From Bacteroidia bacterium (GTDB lineage Bacteria > Bacteroidota > Bacteroidia > SpSt-205), in NCBI GenBank assembly GCA_039630245.1, contig JBCNVK010000004.1, positions 5,403 through 69,402 of the forward strand: a stretch of DNA of 64,000 nt, written 5' to 3'. This document shows, piece by piece, positions 4,476-61,540 of this stretch (position 1 is its first letter; each line of letters starts with the position of its first letter). The translations under genes were made by a program, and so were the position numbers. The notes beneath the pieces were generated by a model that saw only the letters and a program-made list of their open reading frames with translations, did not search any database and was not told the origin of the DNA.

Positions 4476-4483
4476 CAAAGGTA
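4476..4483 (-). promoter_or_regulatory. Bacteroidota sigma-A -7 element TACCTTTG, 4 nt upstream of the rplS ATG. It is embedded in a perfect 8-bp/4-nt-loop inverted repeat (4475-4494).
   Basis: Minus-strand read ...TACCTTTGcggcATG. The same motif-plus-spacer architecture recurs at many starts in this window. Confidence 0.6.
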
Positions 4484-12348: not shown

Positions 12349-12564
12349 TCATTCTTCCTCAAAGAGGAATTCCTCGCGGGAGGGATAGTCAGGCCAAATG
12401 TCTTCCATAGACTCGTAGAGGGTATCGTCATCGGGTAGCTCCCGCAAATTTTCCAGGACTTCTAAGGGCGCGCCGATCCGCTCGGCGTAGTCTATCAGTT
12501 CGTTTCGGGTAGCTGGCCACGGTGCATCCTCCAGATACGAGGCAAGCTCCAGCGTCCAGTACAT
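12349..12564 (-). CDS. Small acidic DUF2795-like protein. Start corrected to the internal Met (MYWTLEL...).
   Basis: About 71 aa from the corrected start. The TATATTTG promoter motif lies 9 nt upstream of this Met on the minus strand. The longer listed ORF would overlap the divergent rhomboid gene. Confidence 0.5.
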   Translation of the reverse strand: MYWTLELASYLEDAPWPATRNELIDYAERIGAPLEVLENLRELPDDDTLYESMEDIWPDYPSREEFLFEEE

Positions 12565-12586
12565 ACCAAAGGCAAATATACAGAAT

Positions 12587-13778: not shown

Positions 13779-13786
13779 TACCTTTG
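13779..13786 (+). promoter_or_regulatory. TACCTTTG -7 element, 4 nt upstream of the valS ATG
   Basis: TTTACCTTTGccttATG. Confidence 0.6.
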
Positions 13787-19910: not shown

Positions 19911-19943
19911 CCAGCAAAGGTAGCTATTTGGAATGAATACAAA

Positions 19944-21992: not shown

Positions 21993-22100
21993 GCTCCAAA
22001 AGTACGGCTCAACCCCCTTTTTCCACAGCTTAAACCAGTTTTCCTAACCAATTCTGCCTACTTTCCTTGGCTGATGCGAAGTAGTTCATACCTTTGCTAA

Positions 22101-24131: not shown

Positions 24132-24151
24132 GCTTTCTACCTTTGCGGCCG

Positions 24152-24448
24152 ATGGCAGCACCAGCGAAAAAGAAAAAACGCACGCGCTCGCGCACGGCTC
24201 TAAGACGCCAGCGCAAAAGCGAGCGGCGCCGTCTGCGGAATTTAGCCTGGAAAGCCCGTTATAGGCAAGCCCTGCGAGCCCTGCGGAACGAAACCGACCC
24301 GGCACGCCTTCCCGAACGTCTGCGGGCGGTACATTCCGTTTTAGATCGCCTAGGGCGGCGACGCATCTTCCACCCGAATAAAGTCGGTCGGCTCAAAGCG
24401 CGGCTGGCCCGTTGGGTAGCGGCTCGCCTAAGCGGAAAGCCCTCCTAA
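24152..24448 (+). CDS. Small Arg/Lys-rich basic protein of unknown function (98 aa from the ATG). The listed TTG start at 24143 is unlikely.
   Basis: An exact TACCTTTG promoter motif sits at 24138-24145 with a 6-nt spacer to the ATG. The ORF fills the gap between the flanking genes and ends 3 nt before the POT transporter start. Confidence 0.45.
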   Translation: MAAPAKKKKRTRSRTALRRQRKSERRRLRNLAWKARYRQALRALRNETDPARLPERLRAVHSVLDRLGRRRIFHPNKVGRLKARLARWVAARLSGKPS

Positions 24449-24451
24449 AGC

Positions 24452-25912
24452 GTGGCTAAACCGCTACTGGGGCGACACCCGCCCGGCCTCTATGTGCTCT
24501 TTTTTTCTGAAATGTGGGAGCGGTTTAGCTACTATGGCATGCGGGCCATCTTGGTCTTGTACCTCACCCTTTACCTCCCCTATACCCGTCAGGCCGCCTT
24601 AGAGATCTATGGACTTTATACTGGGCTAGTTTATCTTACCCCGCTTCTGGGGGGCTTTTTGGCGGACCGCTGGCTGGGCTATCGGGGCACCGTCTTAGCG
24701 GGCGCTTTCCTCATGATGGTAGGCCACTTCGCCATGGCCTTCCCTAACCTCCTCTTTCCCGCCCTCGCCCTCCTCATTCTCGGAAATGGCCTCTTCAAGC
24801 CAAATATCTCTACAATTGTAGGATCTCTTTACCTTTTAGGCGATCCCCGGCGCGATGCGGCCTTTACCATTTTTTACATGGGCATCAACTTAGGCGCTTT
24901 TTTTTCGCCGCTGGTGTGCGGCACCCTAGCGGATAGGTTTACACCGCACTGGGGATTCGGGGCGGCTGGGGTTGGGATGCTGATTAGCCTAATAATCTTT
25001 TTAGGTGGCCTTCGCACCCTTCGGCCAGCCGTAGGGAGCTGGCAGCCGCTCAGCCAGTCAGAAATAGGTCGGATCGCCTTAGTTACGGTCCTCGGAATAG
25101 GCGTGGCATTTTCGGGGGGACTTTTGGCACCCGTTATAGGGCGCAGTTTTCTGTCCCTCCTCTATAAGTGGCTGGTTCTGAGTGCTTTGGCAGCTACCCT
25201 CCTCTACCTGAGCCTGCGGCTTCGACACCAAGCCGAATGGCAACGAACCGCCGCCATCCTCCTCTTAGCTGGCTTTACGGCTATTTTCTGGATGGGTTTT
25301 GAACAGGCCGGCGGCACCTTGAACCTTTTCGCCCAGGAAAAAACCCAGCGCGAATTTCACCTAGCTGGGCGGCACTGGGAATTTCCTGCGCCTTACTTTC
25401 AGTCGCTCAATCCCCTCTTGATATTCATTCTGGCGCCGCTCTTTTCTCTCTTGTGGGTGCGTTTAGCGGCTCAGGGCCGAGAACCTTCTACGCCTACCAA
25501 AATGGGCCTGGGTCTTTTGCTGCTTTCGGCGGGATTCTTAGTGATGAGCTTAGCCGAGTGGCGCGCGCACCTTACTAAGGTAAGCCCGCTCTGGCTAGTA
25601 GGCGTATACCTTCTCCATACGTTGGGGGAGCTGTGCCTCTCACCCGTAGGGCTGTCCATGGTCACGCGGGTAGCACCACCTGCAGTAGCTGCGCTTATGA
25701 TGGGGGTATGGTTTTTGGCTTCCTCATTTGGTAATTACATGGCCGGGGTTTCCGAGGAGGTTCTTCAGCGGCGGGCTTTACCTCTGTATCCCACACTTAT
25801 GGGGATAAGCGGAGGGGCTGGGCTGATGCTCCTACTGGGCGCGCGCTGGATTCATCGCTGGATGACGGCGCCCCTGCCTTCGCCCGAGCTTACTGCGCAC
25901 CAGAAAGAATAA
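24452..25912 (+). CDS. POT/PTR2 family proton-dependent oligopeptide transporter
   Basis: PTR2 signature at the N-terminus (FFSEMWERFSYYGMRAILVLYL) and 12-14 TM helices. Confidence 0.85.
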   Translation: MAKPLLGRHPPGLYVLFFSEMWERFSYYGMRAILVLYLTLYLPYTRQAALEIYGLYTGLVYLTPLLGGFLADRWLGYRGTVLAGAFLMMVGHFAMAFPNLLFPALALLILGNGLFKPNISTIVGSLYLLGDPRRDAAFTIFYMGINLGAFFSPLVCGTLADRFTPHWGFGAAGVGMLISLIIFLGGLRTLRPAVGSWQPLSQSEIGRIALVTVLGIGVAFSGGLLAPVIGRSFLSLLYKWLVLSALAATLLYLSLRLRHQAEWQRTAAILLLAGFTAIFWMGFEQAGGTLNLFAQEKTQREFHLAGRHWEFPAPYFQSLNPLLIFILAPLFSLLWVRLAAQGREPSTPTKMGLGLLLLSAGFLVMSLAEWRAHLTKVSPLWLVGVYLLHTLGELCLSPVGLSMVTRVAPPAVAALMMGVWFLASSFGNYMAGVSEEVLQRRALPLYPTLMGISGGAGLMLLLGARWIHRWMTAPLPSPELTAHQKE

Positions 25913-27145: not shown

Positions 27146-28150
27146 CTAATCCTCTAATTTGCACGGGTAAGGGGGGGGTGGCGCGTTGTTGAGACGCAGA
27201 AGATAACGGCTGCAGTCATCTATACGAAAAAACCGCCGGCTGGTAGCCACAGCGCCAAAAATCCCCAATCCATTGCGAATGTTGGTATATTCGGGCTTTA
27301 CGGTAGTAAAGTCTGTAGTGCCAGGGGAGTTAATGCGGATATAATTATAGAGCGGGGTATCTAAAGCCGTAACGGTGAGCGACCAAGCCTGGCTGAAGGG
27401 GCTTTCGTCATATACATATGGCTGGCTGAAAGGGTAGAGGTTGCTATATACGGTCCGTAGCAGCTGCTTTTCTCGGAGAGTGAAGACCTGAGCATTTTCC
27501 GCCCTTGCTGGTACTAAATAGGGGCCTATGGGAAGGGTGCGCCAGAGGGTATCTGAGCCTTGGAGGGTACCGTAGCGGAAAGTAAAGCCGATTTCGTAGC
27601 CCGCTGCGGCCGCAGGCGTACTACCTATCCGGGCAAAATACTGGATATCGTAGGGGCGCATTAGGTCTATTATGGGATAAGCCGGCTGGCCCTGAAATAA
27701 CGCTACGGTCTCAGGCCGGGCTATATACGGCGGCGCAGGTACGAGCGCCATGGCACTTACATTCAGGCTGGGATTCTCGGGTACATTTATGGTGAGGAAG
27801 TAGCGCTGGCGGGGCCGAGGACGCAAAAGCAGCCGATATACCACTTGGACGGGGTAAAACGGCTGATTGGGTATCTTCAGTACAGTCTCGGGCTGGGCTA
27901 GCCAGGTAGTGTTTCCATCCGAAAGGCGCACTTCCGCCTGCACGCTAAGGTCCGTACGCGCCGCATAAGCCATAGCATCCTCACGCGTTACGAAGAGGCG
28001 TCCCACTCGGATATACTGTGTGTCCCGGTCAGGATAGAGAATGCCATACACTACCAGCTGTTCCCGTGCCTGCGGCGCAATAAGCTCCACCTCCGTACGA
28101 CAACCTACCCCAAGAAATATGAGGCCAATTGCGTATTTTTGCTTCCGCAC
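27146..28150 (-). CDS. Lipoprotein of unknown function, immediately upstream of the histidine kinase with zero spacing (GTG start)
   Basis: Lipobox GLIFLGVGC. The stop codon abuts the kinase ATG. A TACATTTG promoter motif lies 5 nt upstream of the GTG. Confidence 0.55.
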   Translation of the reverse strand: MRKQKYAIGLIFLGVGCRTEVELIAPQAREQLVVYGILYPDRDTQYIRVGRLFVTREDAMAYAARTDLSVQAEVRLSDGNTTWLAQPETVLKIPNQPFYPVQVVYRLLLRPRPRQRYFLTINVPENPSLNVSAMALVPAPPYIARPETVALFQGQPAYPIIDLMRPYDIQYFARIGSTPAAAAGYEIGFTFRYGTLQGSDTLWRTLPIGPYLVPARAENAQVFTLREKQLLRTVYSNLYPFSQPYVYDESPFSQAWSLTVTALDTPLYNYIRINSPGTTDFTTVKPEYTNIRNGLGIFGAVATSRRFFRIDDCSRYLLRLNNAPPPPYPCKLED

Positions 28151-31992: not shown

Positions 31993-33158
31993 TGCGCTTG
32001 GCCGTAATAGGTCCGCCGCGGGATGTGCATCTACGCCGGTGGGGAGAGGCGCTTCGGGCGGCGGGAGCCGAGGTGCTTTTCGTAGGGGTGGAGAAAGCCC
32101 CACCCGACCTAATTCCCTACCACTGTATAGGCCCTCCCGTAGAAAAGCCCAGCTTCTGGACTTTTTGGCAGCGCCGTCGGGCGCTCAGGGCTTTCCTAGT
32201 AGCGCAGCGCGTGGATTTGGCCCATCCCATTCATCTTACACCTTCAGGGGTGTGGGTGTGGCTTAGTGGCTTCCGCCCTTACCTGCCTTATGTGATGGGA
32301 GCGGACGTACTGGAGTATGGGCCTAGGCGACCGGCCTTAGGACGCAGCTGGAGCCTCCAGAGTGTGTCGCCCTCCCCTCTCCTTTACCTGCGCACCTTCC
32401 TGCGCCGGAAACTTATGCCACCGCTTTTACGGGCTACGCTAAGGCAGAGCCTAGCGGTAGCAGCCGATAACTACGAGCTTAGTTTTACATGCAAATTTTT
32501 TGTAAAAAGAAAAAAAATTATTGAACTCCCAGCTGGTATACGGGTGGTGGAGGGGGCGGCGCCTGAGCGGCGCGGCATTCTAGTAGGGCGCGGGACTACT
32601 TCCCTATACCAAGCGGACATTATTCTGGAGGGGGTGCGTCGCTACCTAGCGGAGGGGGGACGGCAGCCTATCTACTGGCTCAGGGGCCTCTACCCGCCCC
32701 ATCCTACTCTCCTGCGCCAAATCCGTCAAATAAGCCAGAAGTACGAAAATAGGTTTTATTTTTTTGAAAACATACTATCGCCGGCACGCCTTTGGCAGCT
32801 TTGGCAAGAGGTGGCAGCCTTTATCTCAGCCCCTGTGTATGACGGCTACAGCTACGCCGTAGCGGAAGGGCGCCTAGCTGGAAGCCTGCCAATTGTGAAC
32901 GCTATACCCGCCCATCTGGAAATTCTGACCCACGGCTATAACGCTTACATTGTAGAGCCTTTTACGGCGGTGCGTTTGGCTCAAGCCCTCCATGAAGTGG
33001 AGGAATGGCTAGCCGGTCCGCCCTTTTGGGCGGGTCCTAACGCCGAATGGGTGCGACGCTTCTCCGACTTAGCCCAGTCGGCCCGCTGGTTTCTCAGCTT
33101 TGTCCAAGAGAATTTACTACCTTTGCACAGGAACGGCGGGTATAGCTCAGGTGGTTAG
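31992..33158 (+). CDS. Glycosyltransferase (GT4-like). The 3' end overlaps tRNA-His by 24 nt.
   Basis: GT-B fold features with an EX7E-like region (AEGRLAGSLPIVNAIPAHLEILTHGYNAYIVEP). Confidence 0.55.
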   Translation: MRLAVIGPPRDVHLRRWGEALRAAGAEVLFVGVEKAPPDLIPYHCIGPPVEKPSFWTFWQRRRALRAFLVAQRVDLAHPIHLTPSGVWVWLSGFRPYLPYVMGADVLEYGPRRPALGRSWSLQSVSPSPLLYLRTFLRRKLMPPLLRATLRQSLAVAADNYELSFTCKFFVKRKKIIELPAGIRVVEGAAPERRGILVGRGTTSLYQADIILEGVRRYLAEGGRQPIYWLRGLYPPHPTLLRQIRQISQKYENRFYFFENILSPARLWQLWQEVAAFISAPVYDGYSYAVAEGRLAGSLPIVNAIPAHLEILTHGYNAYIVEPFTAVRLAQALHEVEEWLAGPPFWAGPNAEWVRRFSDLAQSARWFLSFVQENLLPLHRNGGYSSGG

Positions 33159-33211
33159 AGCGTCTGACTGTGGCTCAGAAGGTCGTCGGTTCGAATCCGA
33201 CTGCCCGCCCA
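33135..33211 (+). tRNA. trnH: tRNA-His (anticodon GTG) with the encoded G-1
   Basis: Manual fold of the 7-bp acceptor GCGGGTA/TGCCCGC. D arm GCTC-AGGTGGTTA-GAGC. Anticodon stem TCTGA/TCAGA with loop CTGTGGC. T arm GTCGG-TTCGAAT-CCGAC. Discriminator C73 and an extra 5' G-1, diagnostic of tRNA-His. Confidence 0.93.
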
Positions 33212-35933: not shown

Positions 35934-35966
35934 CCTGCGAAGGTAGAGAAAGGCTACCTTTGTGGC

Positions 35967-40644: not shown

Positions 40645-40701
40645 CGCCGCCAAAGATAGCGGGAAGCTATAAGGGATAGGCGTTTCACCGTATTTTTGGC
40701 C

Positions 40702-45824: not shown

Positions 45825-45832
45825 TACCTTTG
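45825..45832 (+). promoter_or_regulatory. TACCTTTG -7 element, 4 nt upstream of the carB GTG. The divergent lptB element TATTTTTG (minus strand, plus-strand 45794-45801) is 3 nt upstream of its ATG.
   Basis: A 46-bp divergent intergenic region holds both motifs. Confidence 0.55.
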
Positions 45833-56065: not shown

Positions 56066-56073
56066 TACCTTTG
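56066..56073 (+). promoter_or_regulatory. TACCTTTG -7 element, 5 nt upstream of the bifunctional-nuclease ATG. It is half of the palindrome TACCTTTG-N9-CAAAGGTA (56066-56090).
   Basis: TACCTTTGaactaATGgCAAAGGTA. The downstream half, read on the minus strand, is a second TACCTTTG pointing toward the divergent GT2 gene. Confidence 0.55.
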
Positions 56074-57940: not shown

Positions 57941-57967
57941 GGCTCATGTACACTACCTTTGCGCCGT

Positions 57968-58132
57968 ATGGCCCGTAAGCCTGACAAGCGCGTCTATGTG
58001 CGACTTAACCGAGCGCGCAAACGAATCCAACGCTGCCGCGTCTGGTCGCCCATCCGAAGCCCGAGAGCAAATGCCCTCCAAGAAGCCAACCTTAAGCTCC
58101 TGAACACCCTGAAGCAATCGCTCCAGCAATGA
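57968..58132 (+). CDS. Small highly basic protein, 54 aa (MARKPDKRVYVRLNRARKRIQRC...). Not in the ORF track. ATGA-coupled to the downstream oxidoreductase.
   Basis: An exact TACCTTTG motif at 57954-57961 lies 6 nt upstream of the ATG. The reading frame ends in a TGA overlapping the next gene's ATG. Confidence 0.4.
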   Translation: MARKPDKRVYVRLNRARKRIQRCRVWSPIRSPRANALQEANLKLLNTLKQSLQQ

Positions 58133-59061
58133 GTCGACGGGTCCGCGTGGGACTCGTCGGCCTGGGCCACATGGGCCGCCTCCACCTAAAACACCTATTG
58201 GAGCTACCCCTCGCTGAAGTAGTGGCGCTTTTAGACACCGACCCGGCGGTGCAGCAGGACCTTCAGGCCCAGGGCTTGCCGGTAGTACCCTCCTACGAGG
58301 CCCTCTTAGAGGCTAGCGAGGCGGTAATTATTGCTTCCCCTACTCCTACGCACGCGGCCTACGCCGAAGCAGCTCTGCGGGCCCGACGCCATGTACTGAT
58401 TGAGAAGCCCGTTACTACAAGCTTAGAGGCCCTTGAGCGCCTCCTTACCCTTCAAGACGAAGCCGGCGTGGTAGCCTTAGTAGGACACATAGAGCGTTTC
58501 AATCCGGCCTTTCAAGCCCTGTGGCCCCTCCGCCAGCAGTTTCATCACTTTACCTTTGAGCGCCTAGCGCCCTGGAGCCCCCGCGGCAGTGAGGTCTCCG
58601 TGGTACTGGACCTGTTAGTGCATGATTTAGACCTTTTTTGGGCCCTTACAGAGGGCTGCGTAGCGGATCTGAGGACGGTGGCCTACCGCACTTTCACCGA
58701 AAAGGCCGATACGGTACAAGTCTGGATAGACCTCGTAGATGGACGCGGCGCAAGCTTTAGTATAAGTCGGAATGCGCCTTATCGTCAGCGGCGCCTCTTA
58801 GCCCATGGCCCAACCCTCTGGGCCGAGGCGAACCTCCTCACACGCACCGTACAACTTTGGGATATTACCTCAAATCCACCCCAGCCTTTACCCCTCACCG
58901 TCCCCTCTTCCGATGCCTTACAGGCAGAGCTGGAACACTTTTTGCTGGCGATTACGGAGGGTTTCTCTTCCCCCCTGTCCTTGGAACATGTATATGGTGT
59001 CATGCTGTGGGCGTGGAAAGTGGAGGCTTTGGCTGAGCAGCGCTTGGTATTTGCTCCTTAG
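58129..59061 (+). CDS. Gfo/Idh/MocA-family NAD(P)-dependent oxidoreductase
   Basis: Rossmann N-terminus VRVGLVGLGHMGRLH and a C-terminal Gfo/Idh/MocA domain. Confidence 0.75.
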   Translation: MSRRVRVGLVGLGHMGRLHLKHLLELPLAEVVALLDTDPAVQQDLQAQGLPVVPSYEALLEASEAVIIASPTPTHAAYAEAALRARRHVLIEKPVTTSLEALERLLTLQDEAGVVALVGHIERFNPAFQALWPLRQQFHHFTFERLAPWSPRGSEVSVVLDLLVHDLDLFWALTEGCVADLRTVAYRTFTEKADTVQVWIDLVDGRGASFSISRNAPYRQRRLLAHGPTLWAEANLLTRTVQLWDITSNPPQPLPLTVPSSDALQAELEHFLLAITEGFSSPLSLEHVYGVMLWAWKVEALAEQRLVFAP

Positions 59062-59875
59062 CTGCTCCTCGCCTAAAGCTCTACCCCCCGCCTACCTCCA
59101 GCTAGACTCGGCGCGCGTAGTTTTAGAGCGTGACACACTCCAAATAGAAGCCCCGATAGATGCGTGGGTTTATCCGCAAGGGCGCTTCCTGAGCGTAGTG
59201 GAACCGGGCGAATACCTTCCGATTGTGCCTGCTACGCAACAGCCTATTCTCTTGGCCGGGGGCGTGCGCGTGAATGGCCTCGGTGCGGTGCGCCGGCCTT
59301 ACCCCTTCTGGCAATTTGACACCTTACCCTATCCCTTAGCCCCTGAACAAACCTACACCTACCGACCTACCTACACCTATTTCCCCGATACCCTTTTAGA
59401 ATACCTTCTTCGGGAAGATTTTGAGAGTCCTCAGATGGCACTCCGGGTGCTACCGGGAGAGCCGCCGGGGCGTGCTACGCTGCGCCGATTACCAAACCAC
59501 CCCCGGCGCGGCTTCTGGGCCGCTGAAATTAGCCTACCTCCAGCCACTACTTTCCAGGCTGAAGCCGCTACACCCTTTGAGTTTCCTAAAAACGAACTCT
59601 GGGCCGAAATCTCCCTTCGCGGCGACCGAAACCTGGGAGTGGGCCTCACCGTAGAAAACCGCCAAACTGGAGCCGTAATAGAGCGGCAGGTACAGCTTAT
59701 CCTCCGTCCGCCGGATGTGGGATGGGGCACATTTTACATTGACCTTTTGCCTTGGCTTCGTCAGAAAGGCACGTTGTACCGCTACCGTCTCTACCTTACA
59801 AGCCAAAGCGATAGCACGCGCCCCGCTACCCTTTACTTAGACGACCTGCGCCTAATAACCTTCCGGTCCAGATGA
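58994..59875 (+). CDS. Putative lipoprotein of unknown function. Start uncertain: the ORF-track start at 58805 lies inside the upstream gene.
   Basis: An internal Met is followed by a signal/lipobox-like LWLSSAWYLLLSCSS. ATGA-coupled to the downstream sugar transferase. Confidence 0.35.
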   Translation: MVSCCGRGKWRLWLSSAWYLLLSCSSPKALPPAYLQLDSARVVLERDTLQIEAPIDAWVYPQGRFLSVVEPGEYLPIVPATQQPILLAGGVRVNGLGAVRRPYPFWQFDTLPYPLAPEQTYTYRPTYTYFPDTLLEYLLREDFESPQMALRVLPGEPPGRATLRRLPNHPRRGFWAAEISLPPATTFQAEAATPFEFPKNELWAEISLRGDRNLGVGLTVENRQTGAVIERQVQLILRPPDVGWGTFYIDLLPWLRQKGTLYRYRLYLTSQSDSTRPATLYLDDLRLITFRSR

Positions 59876-61275
59876 GGCGGCAGCTGTTAGGCCTCTTCTT
59901 TGCGGTGACGGATTTCCTTCTAGCGTATGCAGGGTGGGTAGCTTTTTATTGGATACGACGCTTTTACCTCTACAACGACCCAGCCACTACCGGCACGCTA
60001 TGGGAGTACCTTTGGGCCCCCCTTTTAGTAGCCTCTTACTGGGTGGTGTTGTATGGGCTGCAGGGAAGCTATAGCGATCCCATCCGCCAATCTATCCTCC
60101 GCGAGCTTTTCGCTCGGGCTTGGATTACAGCCTTGGGAAGTTTGGCCTTATTTTTTCTGGCCTTTTTAGATGACCCTATCCCAAACTACAAGGCCTACCG
60201 ACTGGCTTTGGGTGGTTATTTAGGGCTGCAATGGGGCTGTAGCTGGCTGGCCCTTCTGCTTCTCCGCTTAGGGCTGATTCATGTGCTGCGGCGGCGTCTT
60301 TTCTACTTTCCTACGGTAATTGTAGGAAATGGGCCGCGCGCCCTTCAGCTTATAAAGGAGCTTACCACACATGGAAAAGAGCTGGGCTACGACCTGATAG
60401 GCTATATAACCCCTTCAGCGAATAGCCCAAATCTACTCCAAGGAAAGGCCAAAAAACTAGGCACCATTGAGGATATGGAGCGTATCTTACAGCAGCGCCA
60501 GCCGCACTATCTCATCCTCGCTACCGAACCGCAGGACGAGCACATTTTACCCCACGTCTTAGCTCAAGTAAATGGCTATCCAGTGGAGGTATATCTCGTA
60601 CCGGCTCTGCGGGACGTATTAGCTGGTGGGGTACGGTTAGGAAGTCCTATAGAGATTCCGCTGGTAGCGGTCTCGCCTGGCCCGCCCTCACCGTGGTATG
60701 AGGTCATAAAGCGGGGGATGGACATAGTTTTTTCCATTCTAGCGCTTATTTTCTTAGCGCCGGTTATGGCTATTATTGCGGTGCTGGTGCGGCTTTCCTC
60801 GCCAGGGCCTATTATTTTTCGGCAGGAGCGGATTGGCAAGCATGGGCGGCCATTCATTATGTATAAGTTCCGTACCATGTACCAGGATGCGGAAAAGGAT
60901 GGGCCGGCGCTTAGTCGGGCGGGCGATCCGCGAATTACCCCGATCGGACGCTGGCTGCGTAAAATGCGCCTGGATGAGCTACCGCAATTCTGGAACGTCC
61001 TGAAGGGGGAGATGAGCCTCGTCGGTCCTCGGCCTGAGCGCCAGTACTATATCCAACAAATCGTAGCCCGCGCGCCCGAGTACAAGCAGCTCCTCAAAAT
61101 CCGCCCGGGCATCACCAGCCTCGGGATGGTCCAATACGGCTACGCCTCCTCGGTGGAGGAGATGATAGAGCGCATGCGGTACGACCTTATCTACCTCGCC
61201 AACCGCTCACTGCTTCTGGACATAAAGATTCTCTTCTACACGATCCTGCGCGTACTGCAGGCGCGCGGAAAGTAG
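59872..61275 (+). CDS. Polyprenyl-phosphate sugar phosphotransferase (WbaP/bacterial sugar transferase family)
   Basis: N-terminal TM helices and a C-terminal bacterial sugar transferase domain ([24 protein letters not shown]). Confidence 0.85.
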
Positions 61276-61288
61276 TACCTTTGCACCT

Positions 61289-61540
61289 GTGAAAAAAGGG
61301 ATTCATCCAGAGTATCGCTTAGTCGTTTTCAAGGACGCTTCGGCGGATTTTGCCTTCCTTACGCGCTCCTGCGTCCGCACGAAGGAGACCATTGTATGGG
61401 AGGATGGAAAGGAGTACCCTTTGGTCAAGCTGGAAATCTCCAGCGCTTCGCATCCGTTCTTTACGGGTAAGCAGAAGTTTGTAGATACGGCGCGGCGCGT
61501 GGATAAGTTTATGGCGCGTTACGCGAAAAAGTCTAAGTAG
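61289..61540 (+). CDS. rpmE: 50S ribosomal protein L31, type B (no zinc-ribbon Cys)
   Basis: [16 protein letters not shown] ... [23 protein letters not shown] start 5 nt after a TACCTTTG motif. Confidence 0.9.

Follow-up and report, generated by a model that had tools for sequence, protein, structure and literature searches.

One system with which the locus described here can be compared is the capsule locus of Bacteroides, whose first genes encode the regulators UpxY and UpxZ. UpxY is NusG-like and about 170 aa long, and UpxZ, too, greatly exceeds 54 aa. A second point of comparison is provided by the ribosomal proteins bTHX, bS22, bS21 and bL36, which are small, very basic and restricted to particular lineages. 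In terms of gene starts, leaderless small ORFs heading operons have been described in mycobacteria (Shell et al. 2015, PMC4633059, as cited by PMC6847099), and the 'group C' of GeneMarkS-2 (PMC6028130) is a related case. Finally, ATGA and TGATG junctions between consecutive genes are known from termination-reinitiation (PMC6728339, PMC12548453, PMC10666635).

Within the window (the entire 64,000-nt stretch of Bacteroidia DNA that was analyzed), a gene for a 54-aa protein shares features with each of these systems. As in the mycobacterial and group C cases, a box lies a few nucleotides before an AUG that we infer to be the mRNA 5′ end, the small first cistron abuts the next gene, and the layout is found genome-wide. 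Unlike those cases, the element is the Bacteroidetes -7 box TAnnTTTG rather than a Pribnow box, and the host belongs to the Bacteroidia, described as mostly leadered (PMC9723704, PMC6847099); the peptide, unlike the mycobacterial small ORFs, is also strongly conserved. The conserved 4-nt overlap or 0-1 nt gap to the downstream gene matches the ATGA/TGATG pattern, although the upstream gene in this case encodes an orphan protein of 54 aa and not an established complex subunit, and the coupling is a predicted one. With bTHX and its counterparts the protein has in common its size, charge, extended conserved tail, narrow range and ribosomal-gene neighbors, but no sequence or fold similarity was detected. 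As with UpxY and UpxZ, the gene stands first in a polysaccharide locus, where a regulator dedicated to that locus would be well placed, whereas its product is without any Pfam match. The account that best explains the whole, and in which we have good confidence, is that of a real gene forming a predicted leaderless first cistron, which would be coupled by reinitiation to the gene that follows and may have a role in envelope-glycan assembly.

The 54-residue gene and its relatives

A reading made from the sequence alone had proposed a 54-aa ORF at 57968..58132 of the forward strand, and both its coordinates and its peptide proved to be exact, with an ATG start and a TGA stop at 58130-58132. The same sequence-only reading had called the ORF unlisted, which holds for the ORF track it worked from and not for GenBank, where an identical 54-aa product is already predicted as 'hypothetical protein ABDH91_04435'; this product belongs to no described family. 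In an ORF listing with a 30-aa threshold, the frame appears as 57959..58132 and measures 57 aa from a TTG, which is why it went unlisted at the default cutoff of 60 aa. The TTG at 57959 was rejected as the start, because it falls inside the -7 box and the ATG marks the exact point where conservation sets in. This start codon is ATG in 42/42 loci examined.

Searches for relatives point to a family that is real but narrow. Specifically, a word-index search returned 10 homologues of 53-55 aa and 54-100% identity, all from metagenome-assembled genomes labelled Bacteroidia bacterium, and a second such search with a distant member as query added one more protein. The narrowness follows from an HMM scan of 1.84 billion representatives, which gave only two clusters (at 50% identity). 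Scans at the DNA level contributed a further 14 species-representative genomes and 20 metagenome loci. The related loci number about 40, all from uncultured Bacteroidia. Judged by these hits, the family occurs only in one group of uncultured Bacteroidia, mostly from hot springs. Its members comprise a core clade and a distant clade, in which the protein is about 40% identical and retains the same invariant tail. No paralogue of the 54-aa protein was found within the window.

The substitution pattern among these relatives carries the case for a protein product. Pairwise dN/dS is 0.08-0.2 in the core clade (for pairs with unsaturated dS), and pN/pS in the distant clade is 0.15-0.45. Third codon positions vary in 48/54 codons versus 22/54 for second positions, and the first eight residues, MARKPDKR, are invariant over 28 distinct coding sequences even as each residue is encoded by 2-6 synonymous codons. 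The forward frame is open in 16/16 loci tested, with stops in every other frame in most loci, and the length of the protein is kept at 53-55 aa. By this evolutionary signature, ORF 57968-58132 is a genuine conserved protein-coding gene under strong purifying selection. A frame not conserved in relatives had been named beforehand as the observation that would count against a real protein gene; the frame was found to be conserved. The gene adds a member, verified by its evolutionary signature, to the poorly charted bacterial proteins shorter than 60 aa, whose genes escape any ORF track or gene finder that applies a cutoff of 60 aa.

The ORF occupies a 188-nt gap between annotated long genes in which antisense frames are also open in this one sequence, and the gap might instead hold a riboregulator or structured 5′ UTR belonging to the downstream oxidoreductase operon, or the antisense 63-aa ORF (57994..58185) might be the real gene. 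We consider this so improbable as to be negligible, as the folding energy of 57966-58140 equals that of shuffled sequences (z = 0.09) and variation is concentrated at synonymous sites of the forward frame. In Rfam searches of the window, the sole hit passing the gathering threshold was a tRNA elsewhere, and relaxing the limit to E = 10 added nothing above chance level. The antisense ORFs at 57994..58185 and 57953..58129 were both discarded: in most of the relatives, the 89%-identical locus L012 among them, the antisense frames contain 1-4 stops. Both the structured leader and the antisense frame had been raised in the sequence-only reading as matters to check, and on both counts the coding signal was found to lie on the forward frame. 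A regulatory leader peptide or attenuator uORF was likewise rejected, given a dN/dS of about 0.1 over the full length and the same folding z value.

The -7 box and the predicted leaderless start

The small ORF is preceded by an exact TACCTTTG at 57954..57961 on the forward strand, a putative Bacteroidetes-type -7 promoter box that starts 13 nt past the stop codon of the upstream nucleoside-transporter gene. Box, 6-nt spacer (CGCCGT) and ATG at 57968 are all as had been described. Across the window, TAnnTTTG occurs 52 times versus an expectation of 26.8 +/- 4.6, an approximately twofold enrichment that was reached in 0/100 shuffles, and 16 of the 52 occurrences are exact matches to TACCTTTG. 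In the core clade, 36/36 loci carry TAnnTT[T/C]G at a distance of 4-6 nt upstream of the ATG (4 nt in 22 loci, 5 nt in 11 and 6 nt in 3), and this box is mostly TACCTTTG, rarely TACTTTTG or TACCTTCG.

The claim that the small ORF has a promoter of its own is supported by this conservation, which extends to a locus with a divergent neighbor. The upstream gene differs among relatives, being a co-directional NupC gene (as in the window), a co-directional AhpC/TSA gene or, in locus L048, a divergent IleRS gene, and the box, the small ORF and the operon are unchanged across all three. In L048, both back-to-back boxes fit within a 59-nt spacer, and since the upstream gene there is divergent, the promoter must lie within that spacer. 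The constancy of the box beside changing upstream neighbors, together with the L048 layout, indicates that the small ORF belongs with the genes downstream of it and possesses its own promoter-like element. At positions 1870-1950 of L048, the IleRS gene and the small ORF each display the arrangement TACCTTTG, 5 nt, ATG.

In Flavobacterium, the -7 box has been placed 4-5 nt from the transcription start (PMC6847099) and at positions -12 to -5 (PMC9723704). Taken with a box that ends 4-6 nt before the ATG, this spacing predicts an mRNA 5′ end at the A of the AUG or 1-2 nt before it. In the window, we infer GUAUG as the likely 5′ end; with its 6-nt spacer, this transcript may carry a leader of 1-2 nt rather than none. 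In mechanistic terms, the sigma-A-type box TACCTTTG would start transcription at the AUG or 1-2 nt upstream, and the resulting mRNA would be leaderless like most transcription units of this genome. A scan for sigma-70 promoters and intrinsic terminators found nothing relevant, including no terminator between the transporter gene and the small ORF. Read-through transcripts in which the small ORF is internal are consequently possible.

The oxidoreductase junction and the downstream operon

The TGA of the small ORF overlaps the ATG of the oxidoreductase gene (58129), as the sequence-only reading had claimed, and the resulting ATGA at 58129..58132 (forward strand) is a putative termination-reinitiation site. 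Among 32 distinct core-clade loci, the distance from stop to start is -4 nt in 14, 0 in 7 and +1 nt in 11, values of a kind reported to allow termination-reinitiation (PMC6728339, PMC10666635). Inspection of the sequence in the window revealed no GGAGG-like or Shine-Dalgarno-like element before the oxidoreductase start. The conserved junction and the lack of a Shine-Dalgarno-like element fit coupling by termination-reinitiation, in which ribosomes terminating on the small ORF would resume at the Gfo/Idh/MocA start codon that overlaps its TGA. Translation would thus yield the mini-protein alongside three other products, namely a sugar oxidoreductase, a lipoprotein of carbohydrate-binding-like fold and a polyprenyl glycosylphosphotransferase of the EPS type.

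The identities of these neighbors, also put forward previously, were corroborated by profile searches. The gene at 58129..59061 (forward strand) encodes a Gfo/Idh/MocA NAD-dependent oxidoreductase (PF01408, 9.5e-26) that is probably a sugar or nucleotide-sugar dehydrogenase; its best NCBIfam match is UDP-GlcNAc 3-dehydrogenase at 1.7e-33, a score under the family cutoff. It is followed on the same strand by a lineage-restricted lipoprotein gene (58988..59875), whose product has a conserved signal peptide and lipobox and, in its C-terminal half, a beta-sandwich resembling carbohydrate-binding modules (CBM-like fold). A search for distant lipoprotein homologues, made in order to find operons without the small ORF, gave none outside the same lineage. 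The last of the three, at 59872..61275 (forward strand), is an initiating polyprenyl glycosylphosphotransferase with CoA_binding_3 and Bac_transf domains (PF02397, 4.7e-68), which scores 386.7 bits against TIGR03025 (cutoff 295.55). The predicted functions of its partners place the small ORF at the head of an operon for a cell-envelope sugar polymer.

The suggestion that an ATGA links every junction of this operon holds for the lipoprotein and transferase genes (59872-59875) and fails for the oxidoreductase and lipoprotein genes. The oxidoreductase stops at a TAG (59059-59061), and the lipoprotein start that keeps the signal peptide is at 58988 or 58994, so that the two genes overlap by about 70 nt in different frames (58988-59061). 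The GenBank model of an identical lipoprotein (274 aa) appears to begin at a TTG at 59051, a start that would lose the signal peptide and lipobox conserved in homologues. Gene finders can mis-assign starts, and the lipoprotein gene of this operon is a case in point.

The tight junction between the first two genes invites two further explanations. The small protein could be a subunit or chaperone of the Gfo/Idh/MocA oxidoreductase, held at a fixed ratio by the stop/start overlap; the junction is kept between -4 and +1 nt in all 32 loci, and tightly coupled pairs often encode subunits of heteromeric complexes, as stated in PMC10666635. Members of the distant clade, however, are encoded without an adjacent Gfo/Idh/MocA gene. 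Gfo/Idh/MocA enzymes are also not known to require small basic subunits, which counts against such a partnership, and we regard it as quite unlikely. Alternatively, in an organism without Shine-Dalgarno sites, the ORF could be a mere ribosome entry ramp for the oxidoreductase with a functionless peptide, an idea in keeping with a predicted leaderless first cistron and a conserved stop/start overlap. This idea is largely refuted by a dN/dS of about 0.1 along the whole peptide; the length fixed at 53-55 aa and the persistence of a stand-alone, leadered gene in the distant clade also speak against it, and we consider it very improbable.

The surroundings of the distant-clade gene bear on what this protein may do. 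There, the gene has a leader of 20-30 nt, and in one case its stop is followed by a hairpin. A gene for a WecA/MraY-family transferase is immediately downstream of it in L025, L046 and L047, an RmlA-like gene is found 1.4 kb downstream in L021, and the neighbors in L010 are genes for cytochrome c and molybdopterin instead of glycan genes. In two arrangements, the small gene is therefore next to transferases that initiate glycan synthesis and belong to unrelated superfamilies, which suggests a role at that step, with the qualification that only two independent arrangements underlie the link to glycan genes and that this link was recognized post hoc. Of the roles weighed, the likeliest, which we advance tentatively from gene context, is that the small protein takes part in initiating envelope-glycan assembly or regulates this step. 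Its binding partner may be one of the enzymes or a polyanion (nucleic acid, anionic lipid or polyprenyl phosphate). Purifying selection is strongest on its N-terminal tail, ARKPDKR. The recurrent position beside glycan-initiating enzymes offers a testable lead for a protein without a family.

In physical terms, the protein has a mass of 6.5 kDa, a pI of 12, 15 Lys and Arg versus 2 Asp and Glu residues and a net charge of about +13. AlphaFold2, run with a 12-sequence alignment (mean pLDDT 83), places helices at residues 7-25 and 32-53 and an unstructured tail at residues 1-6, so that the protein is predicted to be a strongly basic two-helix protein with an invariant N-terminal tail. Pfam returned only chance matches at E up to 10, NCBIfam, PHROGs and PADLOC held no family for the protein, and the best hits of a PDB profile search were unrelated helix-like proteins (best E = 0.64). 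In the PDB profile search, helix 2 also weakly resembled sigma-70 region 2.1 (E = 0.75), which was not counted as evidence.

This composition is typical of small ribosomal proteins, and the invariant, extended N-terminal tail would fit a lineage-specific ribosomal, ribosome-associated or general RNA/DNA-binding protein whose place in a glycan operon is incidental. The other small basic genes of the window with a predicted leaderless start encode bS20, bL19 and bL31. In the core clade, the small ORF is invariably followed by the oxidoreductase, lipoprotein and glycosylphosphotransferase genes, after which bL31, preceded by a box of its own, ends the same cluster in all core loci. In the distant clade, the small ORF is a stand-alone gene that has a leader and, in one case, a hairpin past its stop, which would also suit such a protein. 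On the other hand, no ribosomal family in Pfam or NCBIfam and no chain in the PDB set searched was matched, and fold comparison detected no similarity to small basic ribosomal proteins. The family is also very narrow, with its two clusters in 1.84 billion representatives, and glycan-initiating enzymes recur as neighbors in two unrelated arrangements. On balance, we judge a ribosomal or nucleic-acid-binding identity to be somewhat unlikely.

Within the glycan-linked role that we favor, a more specific proposal can be formulated. The mini-protein might serve as a dedicated partner or regulator of the opening, membrane-committed reaction in envelope-glycan synthesis, and it would work with both unrelated phosphoglycosyl transferase superfamilies, namely Bac_transf in the core clade and the WecA/MraY type in the distant clade. 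Here the ARKPDKR tail would bind the enzyme or a polyprenyl-phosphate/anionic membrane surface. In this specific form the proposal is unlikely; if true, it would represent a previously unknown control point for undecaprenyl-phosphate use.

Gene starts across the window

The sequence-only reading had also grouped the small ORF with an Arg-rich ORF at 24152 into a recurring class of small basic first-cistron proteins, and this claim did not survive. ORF 24152-24448 encodes ribosomal protein bS20 (PF01649, 5.5e-14, 53 bits versus a cutoff of 29.5; TIGR00029, 48.7 bits versus a cutoff of 33), and the window holds no paralogue of the 54-aa protein. The other small genes with the same start layout encode bL19 and bL31, which are basic, and an acidic DUF2795 protein. 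More broadly, a TAnnTTTG box lies 2-8 nt (mode 4) before the start in 17/55 crude genes of at least 100 aa and in 13/21 crude first-in-unit genes, or roughly 60%, with products of up to 1013 aa. What the small ORF shares with the ORF at 24152 is the general leaderless gene-start design of this genome and not a protein class.

With respect to leaderless starts in related bacteria, 5.5% of transcripts in F. psychrophilum are leaderless (PMC9723704), and 87% of leaders in F. johnsoniae are longer than 10 nt (PMC6847099). A wider survey found leaderless genes in 1/37 Bacteroidetes/Chlorobi genomes with a method limited to Pribnow-like boxes (PMC3160421). As Flavobacterium is mostly leadered, the present Bacteroidia lineage looks unusual. 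Leaderless starts apparently dominate in it, to go by the distribution of boxes, and this is a more unusual point than the small ORF itself. If true, the lineage would be useful for the study of Shine-Dalgarno-free and leaderless initiation in this phylum.

Several individual loci illustrate the variety of these starts. Further boxes are found at 4476-4483(-), 13779-13786, 19915-19922(-), 22089-22096, 35955-35962, 40691-40698, 45825-45832 and 56066-56073, and divergent gene pairs in which both members start in the leaderless manner share intergenic regions of 46-108 nt. The bS20 gene (24138-24448, box included) has TACCTTTG and a 6-nt spacer before its ATG, and a POT-family peptide transporter gene (24452-25912) has a candidate GTG start 3 nt after the bS20 stop, an odd pairing. 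The DUF2795 protein (12349-12580, reverse strand) has 71 aa, close to the 60-aa cutoff, and a pI of 4.1, and it starts 8 nt after a TATATTTG box.

Leaderless transcripts with a non-AUG start are poorly translated in model bacteria. At 61273-61291, the bL31 gene has an apparent GTG start 5 nt after a TACCTTTG box that directly abuts the TAG stop of the transferase gene, and would be leaderless with a non-AUG start; other predicted leaderless GTG starts are at 28150 (reverse strand) and 45837 (forward strand). The window's single tRNA gene (33136-33209) has TACCTTTG at 33118-33125, 10 nt upstream of it, so that boxes of this type apparently promote tRNA transcription as well, leaving a short leader at the 5′ end.
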